Virus genome (UHGV): UHGV-0039337
Length of the DNA stretch: 64,000 nucleotides
Direction: 5' to 3' (one strand)
Source of the DNA: a virus
Under the pieces are notes generated by a model. That model was not told the DNA's origin and searched no databases. It was given only the letters and a program-made list of their open reading frames with translations. Shown here piece after piece: positions 23,012 through 26,000 of this stretch. Positions within the stretch are counted from its first letter, which is position 1. Every line of letters starts with the position of its first letter. Both the position numbers and the translations under genes were made by a program.

Positions 23012-26000
23012 ATGGCTTATGATAAAAGTAGTAAGATAATAAAAAATGGTACATCGATAAATCCTAAAATTAACATGACTAAAATAGCGGATGCAAATAG
23101 ATTTATTAAAGTATTTGGAAATGAACCTACTGATTTAAGTAGCAAGGGTTTAATTAAATATAAAGGAGCTACAAATATTTCTGCATATAAAAAGTTTAAA
23201 CCTTTTACAGACTTAAAAGTTAATGGTGAAAAAATTTCAACTAATAATAAAATGGTTAAAGCTTTAAACAACATAGGTATGATAGGTTTAAAGAAAAATA
23301 CAGCATTATCTACCGTTGCATTACATGGTTTTACTTTTCAACAACAGGAAGAATCAAGAACATCAACCGTTGAAGCTGCAGTTAAAGCCATGAATAAAAT
23401 CAATACATTAGAAAGTAATAAAGTTGGAGCTCTGTATGTATTTGACTTAGAAACATTCGGTGGAACTACAGATGATAATAGATGGTCTCCTGCAGGTATT
23501 ACAGAGTTTGCTATGCAAAAACATGATTTTAAAACAGGGAAACGTACGGCTACTAATATATTAATGACTAATAATGAAACGGTGAGTGAGCTAGAAAAAT
23601 ATTTAGATAAATATACGCAACTAATGGAAAAAGGTGGCATAGAAAAAGTTAAAGAGCATAATGATGTTTATGTATTTGCTCAGCGTATGTCTTTATATGA
23701 TCCTGATAGAGGAGCTACATTCAAAAAAGTAAATGGTGTATGGCAAGCTACCAACTTAATACCATCAGAAAAAGCAGAGGCGGGTAATATTGATGCTATT
23801 AAACGTGCTGTTAAAAACTTTAGAGAAATGAGTAAAGATACAGATACAATAGATTCCGTTACTGGCTTATCTAAAGATATTAAAGCATTAATATCTGCTT
23901 CTGGAGAAATGACTAAGGCAGTTTCTGAAGACAAAGGCGTAATAGGCGGACATAATATATTACAATTTGACCGTGGGATATTAGAAAAAGAAATACGTAA
24001 AGTGTATAATGTACAATTAGATAAATTTAATAATCCTAACGCAACAGAAAAAGAGCTAGAGAAGACAATGGCTGCTATAGAATTCATAGAGGATTCATTT
24101 AATAATAGTGTCGGATTGAATTTTAAAAAAGGTTCAGTATTAGATACTTTGCCATTAGCTAAAGCAGCAACTAATGAAGGTGGCTTTACAAGTCCTAATT
24201 TACAATTGTCTACATTAGCTGAAAAGTTTTATCCTAATTTAGCTGCTTCAGGTACAGCCCATTTAGGTGTGCATGATACAGCTGTAAATATTAGTATGAT
24301 ATTAGATGCTACTGAAACTATTAAAGATAATAAGTCTTTAATGAGACATTTAATAGATGATTATTTAGTGCAATATAATGCTAATACTCCTACTATGGAA
24401 GTAAAACCTAATCAAGTATTCAAAATAACTAATACGCCAATGACAACTTCTATTACTGGTAAAGGTTATTTTAACTTTAAAGAGTATCATGATACTAATG
24501 AAATATATACTGCCGGTGGTTATAAAATAGCTAACGGTAAAATAAAATATAATAAATACTCAGGAAATGTAGGACTGGAAAAAGGTGGATTCTATACTGT
24601 TAGTGAATCCAATATAATAAACTTTGATAAGATTACAGATAAAGCAACAAAAGAACAATTAAGACTATTACAAGAAGCTTATCCTGAAATGAATACTAAA
24701 GAATTATATCATATAGCTATGACTAATCGTACAGTTACTGATTTAGGTAATTCTCATACAGTTCATATGTTTTTTCCTACTCAAGAAGAAGCTGAAGCTA
24801 TGTTATCTTCTAGTGGTGTTCATGTTGCTAATATAACAAAAGAAGGTAAATACAAAACAGTTGAAAGTGGCTTAAGACATGTAGTGAGTGCTACTTATGA
24901 TTTAGATACTAAGCAATTTAATACAGAAACTACAACGGATATAGTAACAGATGCTATAGCTAGACACGAAAAGAAAGTAATTAATGATAGAACTAATAGT
25001 ACAATGTTTACTGGTCGTAAGGCAATGAAAAACATAAAAGCTATGCTATCATTTGATGAAGAAGCTAGAGTTGGTGGATTAGGTAAAGGCTTAGATTCTA
25101 TGCTTAATAATAATGTATCTTTAACTACTATACTCAAATCTAATAGCGGTACAATAAATGGAATAAAGTATTTTGACGATAAAGAATTAAAGAACCTTAA
25201 AAAGTTATATGTTAATAAATTTGGATCTGGTGGAGAAATAGATTATAGAAGATTAATTAACACTTCTAATGCTTACGATGCTATAATTAACGAAAAACAA
25301 TATTATAAAAATTTAATTACTGTTGTTCAAGATAATTTTAATGGTAAGTCTACTCCTACTGAAGAAATGAATGAATACTTCTTAGAACTTAACAAGAGAA
25401 TGAAGACTAAAGTATTAAAAGAAGCGGGGTATGAAGATAAAGAAGTAATCAGAATGGTTAATAATTTTAGTAATCATGCTACACGTGAATATCAAGACTT
25501 TGCTAATCGATATGACTTTAAACTTGGTAAAAGTTTCAAGAAAATTAAAGAATCTGCTTCTAAAATAGAAGACGTTTTTAGCATGACAGATTCAGATGAT
25601 ATAATAACTTACAATCTTAATGATAATTTTGCTAATTCTAAATTCATAAATAAATTATATAAATTTAGAGTCGGGCCAGAAGCTGCCAATAAAAAACATA
25701 AACAGGAATATATAGATGCGAATAAAAGAGAAGCAGTACATAATTTCTTTATAGATTTACATAATAATGCTAAAGTTACTAAACAGTTATATCAGCATGA
25801 AGATTTTAGAAAATATGTAAATGGCTTATATTCTTCTTATACATCTACAGGTAAAATAGGAAAAGATTTTGATCCTAATGAAGGACTAACTCTTATGAGA
25901 GAAGCTATTAAAAAAGCTAAAAATGAAAATTTAATGTCTGGTGTACGTAATGTAATAGGCGATATAAATTTAAACAATAAAGAATTGGCTAATCATTTAG

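Follow-up and report, generated by a model that had tools for sequence, protein, structure and literature searches.

A predicted DEDDh exonuclease domain at the N-terminus of a giant, polymerase-like tail-module protein in a jumbo myophage of Clostridia

Introduction

DEDDh exonucleases are familiar as enzymes that proofread for DNA polymerases or trim RNA and DNA. What, then, would such a domain do at the N-terminus of a giant protein encoded among the tail genes of a phage? The question is raised by ORF3025, an open reading frame (ORF) for 3,025 amino acids (aa) at 23012..32089 (+ strand) of the 64,000-nucleotide stretch of the virus genome UHGV-0039337 analysed here (the window), where it is flanked on either side by another giant gene of the tail module. 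A preliminary description, made from the sequence alone, had placed in ORF3025 a DnaQ-like (DEDDh) 3'-5' exonuclease fused to a ‘giant putative RNA polymerase’ (RNAP) within a tail gene cluster. We know of no two-barrel RNA polymerase that carries a DEDDh exonuclease. The analysis reported below indicates, with a probability that we put at roughly 0.8, that the DEDDh domain is the N-terminal enzymatic module of a tail-module protein of ~3,000 residues, which 0305phi8-36-like jumbo myophages of Clostridia have conserved.

Results

The three exonuclease motifs are found in ORF3025 in the canonical order and where they had been reported. Exo I, VFDLETFGG (23438..23464, +; aa 143-151), contains D145 and E147 and aligns with FFDLETTG of the TREX1 homologue 9mrc. 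Exo II, GGHNILQFDRGIL (23945..23983, +; aa 312-324), includes the string HNILQFD with N315 and D320, and aligns both with GHNSRRFD of 9mrc and with GYNIINFD, the Exo II motif of herpesvirus DNA polymerase. Exo III, HLGVHDTAVN (24260..24289, +; aa 417-426), aligns with AHDASEDV of 9mrc and AHSAEGDV of TREX2, and its H417-x4-D422 spacing is the signature of the ‘h’ subtype and distinguishes it from enzymes with Y-x3-D. The element VLDT (24137..24148, +; D378), located between Exo II and Exo III, aligns with cLDTLP of TREX2 and corresponds to the ‘xxDT/S’ strand conserved at this place in enzymes of the DnaQ/TREX type. The domain as a whole was located correctly by the interval first proposed, 23415-24310, although it extends somewhat wider, over 23369..24385 (+; aa ~120-458). 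The expansion of the motif spacing by insertions, noticed at the outset, is confirmed: relative to the epsilon domain of 174 aa, ORF3025 has ~160 extra residues, mainly at aa ~210-305, where they include a beta-hairpin, and at aa ~340-375, both insertions being lineage-specific.

Homologues were sampled by a word-indexed search, which yielded six close fragments, and by an exhaustive profile search, which, with clustering at 50%, yielded 40 representatives, mostly of 2,980-3,170 aa. Seven residues, D145, E147, N315, D320, D378, H417 and D422, are invariant throughout a 33-sequence alignment of the N-terminal part, in which the surrounding residues vary freely, so that the four acidic residues of the active site (D145, E147, D320 and D422) are retained in 33/33 sequences. 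The same seven residues are invariant in a 19-sequence alignment of the domain that reaches down to 21% identity to the query, along with T148, G150, W158, P160, T164, E165 and R225. Because the catalytic residues are invariant, it is most improbable that the motifs arose by chance or belong to a degenerate relic with a structural rather than a catalytic role in a tape measure or tail protein: all catalytic residues persist across about 40 clusters while identity drops to ~21%, and inactive relatives typically lose them.

The predicted fold points in the same direction. An AlphaFold2 (AF2) model of aa 101-500, with a predicted local distance difference test (pLDDT) score of 78.7 and a predicted template modelling (pTM) score of 0.79, shows a mixed beta-sheet with helices in the RNase H-like order of strands and helices, and places the motifs on the expected secondary-structure elements: Exo I on the first strand (aa 140-149), Exo II at the start of the helix that follows strand 4 (helix from aa 316) and Exo III where the last catalytic helix begins. 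The modelled RNase H-like alpha/beta fold can be superposed on solved DEDDh members, with structural comparison scores of 11.5 for the PolC exo domain, 11.2 for Pol III epsilon (root-mean-square deviation 2.6 Å, 163/174 residues), 11.1 for the S. aureus DinG exo domain, 10.8 for a TREX1 homologue, 10.6 for ExoI, 10.4 for Cas2-DEDDh and 10.3 for ERI1; the DEDDy enzymes (Klenow, RNase D, Rrp6) score about 8.

Profile alignment leads to the same group of enzymes. In a comparison of the 19-sequence domain profile with the Protein Data Bank (PDB), the TREX1 homologue 9mrc was matched at E 0.003 over three co-linear stretches, pairing FDLET with FFDLETTG, GHNxxxFD with GHNSRRFD and AHxAxxD with AHDASED, so that Exo I, II and III each have a counterpart; TREX2 followed at E 0.12, with the pairing lDTLP...AHxAexDV. 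The 19-sequence profile was needed to reach the TREX-type enzymes because the single-sequence and 7-sequence profiles were insufficient, their sole result in the PDB being a local alignment of Exo II with herpesvirus polymerases (E ~2). Likewise, the query scanned as a single sequence retrieved nothing relevant from the PHROGs and nothing in a PDB sequence search. When the 19 members were scanned individually, Pfam DNA_pol_B_exo1 appeared in 4/19 (best E 7e-4), together with DNA_pol_B_exo2 and, for one member, RNase_T (E 0.0017), and the PHROG ‘DNA polymerase exonuclease subunit’ appeared in 3/19; exonuclease families were the only ones to recur. In the search of profile families, which had been suggested as a check, exonuclease families thus recur below their curated thresholds. 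In line with the first reading as a DEDDh exonuclease, the domain is a divergent DEDDh branch outside the existing curated families and, very probably, genuine and active.

The polymerase part of the preliminary description fared less well. ORF3025 carries a beta'-like catalytic signature, RYPLIKEES...NGDSDGDSMS (30086..30226, +; R2359, P2361, D2398, D2400, D2402), which contains the only D-x-D-G-D among the window ORFs of at least 150 aa. The arrangement R2359-Y-P2361...(36 aa)...D2398-S-D-G-D2402 is invariant in 19 full-length homologues, with an R-to-D spacing of 39 residues vs 35 in E. coli beta' (NRAPTLH...NADFDGD); the D-x-D-x-D triad with an R-x-P ~35-40 residues upstream that characterizes two-barrel polymerases is accordingly present. 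The invariants R446/P448/D479-483 of Rpb1 (PMC2919709) correspond to the R-Y-P...DSDGD of ORF3025. The second barrel of two-barrel RNAPs contributes two invariant basic residues, Rpb2 K979 and K987 (PMC2919709), and invariant K2229, R2247 and K2249, which might belong to such a barrel, are found upstream of DSDGD in ORF3025. Aligned to E. coli beta' with hhalign, YNGDSDGDSM pairs with YNADFDGDQM at a non-significant E of 0.019 and over this 10-residue motif only. A mediocre AF2 model of aa 1661-2740 (pLDDT 67, pTM 0.45) gave Foldseek matches of which all 50 listed are beta' or beta'-like (largest-type) chains of multisubunit RNAPs, among them that of the phiKZ non-virion RNAP, none at a significant level (best E 0.068, TM-scores about 0.1). 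Pfam RNA_pol_Rpb1_2 was matched by 1/9 members (E 0.065), the full-length family profile had no match in the PDB, and hhalign of the polymerase region against gp96 of Thermus phage P23-45 returned nothing significant. The signature and the RNAP-only Foldseek matches lend the ‘giant putative RNAP’ weak support, and no match is significant; on balance, we consider it likely that a two-barrel polymerase resides in the same protein as the exonuclease.

The exonuclease domain and the polymerase-like region are both present in every full-length family member, and more distant giants retain FDLETxG, H-x4-D and DxDGD, the last within RFPRIQEGS...NLDFDGDKF in the protein P0073. About 40 clusters of proteins of ~3,000 aa share this exonuclease-polymerase-like fusion. 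A rival explanation is an RNA exonuclease that would trim or degrade 3' ends, proofreading or processing the transcripts of the fused polymerase or destroying host RNA; the nsp14 ExoN of coronaviruses is a DEDDh enzyme that proofreads for its RNA-dependent RNA polymerase (RdRp). However, the best structural and profile matches of the domain are DNA exonucleases, two-barrel RNAPs possess intrinsic transcript cleavage and, to our knowledge, there is no precedent among them for a separate proofreader, which makes an RNA exonuclease distinctly unlikely. Very unlikely, in turn, is the possibility that the DxDGD module makes DNA, like archaeal PolD, and that the DEDDh domain edits the product. The exonuclease of PolD is a different, Mre11-like one; moreover, the gene of ORF3025 belongs to the tail module, where it takes the tape-measure position, and not to a replication module, and the exonuclease and the polymerase-like region are ~1,200 residues apart. 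P23-45 gp96, the one two-barrel enzyme known from a tail module, is an RNAP (PMC10770324).

The tail gene cluster context described initially is right. The window encodes sheath and tube proteins, and its major capsid protein (2235..3494) shares 36-44% identity with the capsid proteins of two jumbo myophages, 0305phi8-36 (Bacillus) and Moorella MTATph1. The gene order is that of 0305phi8-36: sheath, tube, gp144-like chaperone, gp145-like protein, ORF3025, gp147-like hub and small genes, which sit where 0305phi8-36 has the gpV-like gp148 (matched by position only). The upstream giant ORF (16672..22941, +; 2,089 aa) is an orthologue of the 0305phi8-36 virion protein gp145 (tblastn E 1e-35 to 1e-22, aa 793-2059), and the downstream one (32141..40561, +; 2,806 aa) is an orthologue of gp147, the baseplate hub / peptidoglycan hydrolase (tblastn E 1e-59; PHROG endolysin family E 4e-159). 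ORF3025, the start of which is backed by the N-terminus MAxDxSxxxxxNGTSINP conserved among homologues, occupies the place of gp146. This is the tape-measure gene position, between tail chaperones and baseplate hub, although one other gene comes between the chaperone and ORF3025; full-length ORF3025 matched no tape-measure family in Pfam or PHROG. In the annotation of 0305phi8-36, gp145 and gp146 are virion proteins by mass spectrometry, and gp146 is a ‘hypothetical tape measure protein’. A 94%-identical homologue of ORF3025 in the same gene context lies on a 273-kb metagenomic contig (ERZ28637220 scaffold_15), and those homologues that carry a name are from assemblies of Clostridium and Romboutsia. 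We assign the phage to the 0305phi8-36-like jumbo myophages of Clostridia. A crAss-like origin, which had been suspected from the low guanine-cytosine content and the giant ORFs, was ruled out by the capsid identity to jumbo myophages, by the sheath and tube and by tblastn with aa 1-500 and aa 1831-3025 of ORF3025, which found no match in 50,697 phage records.

We also considered ORF3025 as a homologue of gp146 and rejected this, as tblastn found no similarity and hhalign only a C-terminal match, at a non-significant E of 0.061. In the three-giant-gene cassette (16672-40561), the outer genes are orthologous to those of gp145 and gp147 and the middle gene is unrelated in sequence to that of gp146; the middle slot appears, on this sequence comparison, to be exchangeable or very fast-evolving. 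The DxDxD pattern has no match in gp146. A segment of gp146 (aa 1223-1578) contains DEDD-like strings in order, MTYLDIETTGLSG, LAGQNVADADW, HVLDTL and HRRIED, with a similarly long gap between Exo I and Exo II; an exonuclease domain in the gp146 segment aa ~1181-1620 (38164-39483 of the 0305phi8-36 record) was not confirmed by hhalign (E 0.024, probability 2%) or by Pfam.

Besides these regions, ORF3025 has several conserved segments. The string NDNIPKHENMG (28187..28219, +; aa 1726-1736), with invariant D1727, H1732, N1734 and G1736, falls in a low-confidence loop of the model; its equation with the beta-subunit motif GDKxxxRHGNKG was withdrawn, as the register differs, the lysines are not conserved and the likeness of NDNIxxHxNxG is superficial. 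DSETQSG (28703-28723, +; aa 1898-1904; D1898, E1900) is likewise invariant and in a low-confidence part of the model. A hydropathy scan revealed a single hydrophobic, Gly/Ala-rich segment (31730..31801, +; aa 2907-2930), with the consensus LGxxALGLAAGLxxxGYAGG conserved in the family. The extreme C-terminus (31898..32086, +; aa ~2963-3025), GYIINIKADTxKG...NINMN...GGYSNKDIENIINNYI, is highly conserved, and its likeness to the C-terminus of gp146 may reflect a common signal for tail assembly or anchoring. Elsewhere in the window, downstream of baseplate-like genes, an N/I/K/Y-rich ORF of 1,734 aa (42789-47993) has no Pfam or PHROG match and is probably a fibre or baseplate component.

A nuclease domain is present in each of the two neighbouring giant tail-module proteins, because ORF 32141..40561 also has one, a non-specific DNA/RNA endonuclease domain (34337-34774, +; aa 733-878; Pfam Endonuclea_NS_2, E 1.4e-21). 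This neighbour is the starting point of the main rival explanation, in which the ejected exonuclease, independently of the polymerase, would degrade host DNA, starting from the 3' ends at nicks and breaks made by the endonuclease, leading to host shut-off and nucleotide recycling. The endonuclease in the adjacent giant protein, the location of both nuclease genes in the virion/tail module and the DNA exonucleases among the closest structural relatives of the domain all speak for such a host-takeover nuclease. Nevertheless, it is the polymerase-like protein, rather than the one with the endonuclease, that carries the exonuclease, the persistence of this fusion through deep divergence suggests that exonuclease and polymerase are coupled, and the sparing of the phage's own DNA is left without explanation. 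We therefore regard independent degradation of host DNA as unlikely.

Discussion

Motif conservation, predicted fold and profile alignment all indicate that ORF3025 has an N-terminal DEDDh exonuclease domain, which gene position and a conserved fusion place in the tail module together with a polymerase-like region. Several observations weigh against this interpretation. No curated profile is matched at its threshold, the query scoring 13.4-13.9 bits against DNA_pol_B_exo1 (E 0.05) vs a cut-off of 23. Only one AF2 model of five, built on an alignment of 7 sequences, is confident (78.7 vs 45-50), and it locates the catalytic residues at the level of secondary-structure elements only. The data do not separate DNA from RNA substrates or point to a biological target, and ORF3025 and gp146 share no significant homology apart from the non-significant match of their C-termini.

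By analogy with what has been proposed for P23-45, the ORF3025 protein would be incorporated into the virion and, on infection, leave it through the tail. Delivery with the virion is probable; since there is no significant homology to gp146, the location in the virion is deduced solely from gene position. The hydrophobic C-terminal part would remain at the envelope, and the N-terminal exonuclease and the polymerase module would reach the cytoplasm beside the entering DNA. There, the exonuclease would take nucleotides off free 3' ends by two-metal catalysis involving D145/E147/D320/D422, with H417 as the general base. Its substrate would most likely be DNA and its function coupled to the fused polymerase, a coupling that we favour in view of the deep divergence over which the fusion has been conserved. 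To provide a template, the exonuclease might trim or resect 3' ends, either on the incoming genome or in nicked DNA; alternatively, it might clean up the 3' ends of template or product. We put forward this polymerase-coupled processing of DNA 3' ends at the entry site tentatively, as a proposal with somewhat less than even odds. A bolder version, in which the virion-delivered exonuclease and a two-barrel polymerase form one machine, seems rather doubtful; it would operate either by 3'-strand resection, exposing a single-stranded template for pre-early transcription, or as a nucleic-acid polymerase proofread by its DEDDh domain, which would be the equivalent in a bacterial virus of PolD or of the RdRp-ExoN pair of nidoviruses. 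The left terminal repeat of 0305phi8-36 (1-6479) has seven ORFs (ORF101-107), all on the minus strand and transcribed towards the genome end. It is purely speculative that this orientation, should it apply here, would be favourable for transcription if 3'-5' resection of that end exposed a template strand.

An early-transcription enzyme within a protein at the tape-measure position has been demonstrated only recently, in P23-45 (PMC10770324). The conserved fusion in proteins of ~3,000 residues suggests that uncultured ~270-kb phages of Clostridia inject a multi-enzyme nucleic-acid-processing protein with their DNA. If both activity and delivery hold true, the list of tail-delivered phage enzymes would grow, the onset of infection by jumbo phages of Gram-positive anaerobes would become more accessible to study, and the domain might be the first 3'-5' exonuclease to work with a two-barrel polymerase. 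Taken alone, the exonuclease domain has an ordinary fold; the interest resides in its architecture and context.

Among exonucleases, DnaQ/epsilon, PolC and TREX1/TREX2 are the natural standards of comparison, with which the ORF3025 domain shares 15-19% identity and of which it is about twice the size owing to its insertions. Whereas the DnaQ and TREX enzymes are parts of a replicase or stand alone, the domain described here is embedded in a 3,025-aa tail-module protein. On the polymerase side, ORF3025 may be compared with YonO of SPbeta, gp66 of the crAss-like phage phi14:2 and the N4 virion RNAP, polymerases of phages that initiate early transcription and of which some are giant and packaged in the virion. 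With YonO and gp66, ORF3025 shares the beta'-type DxDGD signature; we know of no report of a DEDD exonuclease in YonO, gp66 or the N4 virion RNAP, and gp66 and the N4 enzyme, unlike ORF3025, are not at the tape-measure position. The positional equivalent, gp146 of 0305phi8-36, fills the same slot between proteins of the gp145 and gp147 types, is of comparable length (2,537 vs 3,025 aa) and is weakly similar at the C-terminus. A YonO-like RNAP has been noted in 0305phi8-36 by Iyer et al. (PMC7824862), and the gene for it (ABS83659.1) differs from that of gp146 (ABS83704.1).

The P23-45 protein gp96 is the relevant precedent because ORF3025 stands at the tape-measure position of a 0305phi8-36-like phage. 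It is a tape measure protein of 5,002 residues with an N-terminal two-barrel virion RNAP (bioRxiv 10.1101/2022.12.01.518664 / PMC10770324), recognized through a DFDGD motif where ordinary similarity searches failed, and containing transmembrane segments; its authors proposed that the RNAP sits at the tape-measure pore and transcribes pre-early genes during genome entry (PMC10770324). Both gp96 and ORF3025 are giant tail-module proteins at the tape-measure position, with a D-x-D-G-D that ordinary similarity does not reveal, an enzymatic part towards the N-terminus and one or more hydrophobic segments towards the C-terminus. They differ in having no detectable sequence or profile similarity, in belonging to a siphophage and a contractile-tailed jumbo phage, respectively, and in the place of the polymerase, at aa 327-1124 in gp96 and, for the polymerase-like signature, at aa ~2250-2410 in ORF3025. 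Furthermore, the word ‘exonuclease’ does not occur in the gp96 paper (PMC10770324), whereas ORF3025 has an exonuclease domain, and our survey of the literature, incomplete in coverage and amounting to absence of evidence only, brought up no account of a virion or tape-measure polymerase to which a DEDD exonuclease is fused. Compared with these systems, the DEDDh exonuclease and the polymerase fused into a tail-module protein are each of a known kind and, with the RNAP part plausible but unproven, what would be new in ORF3025 is their combination.

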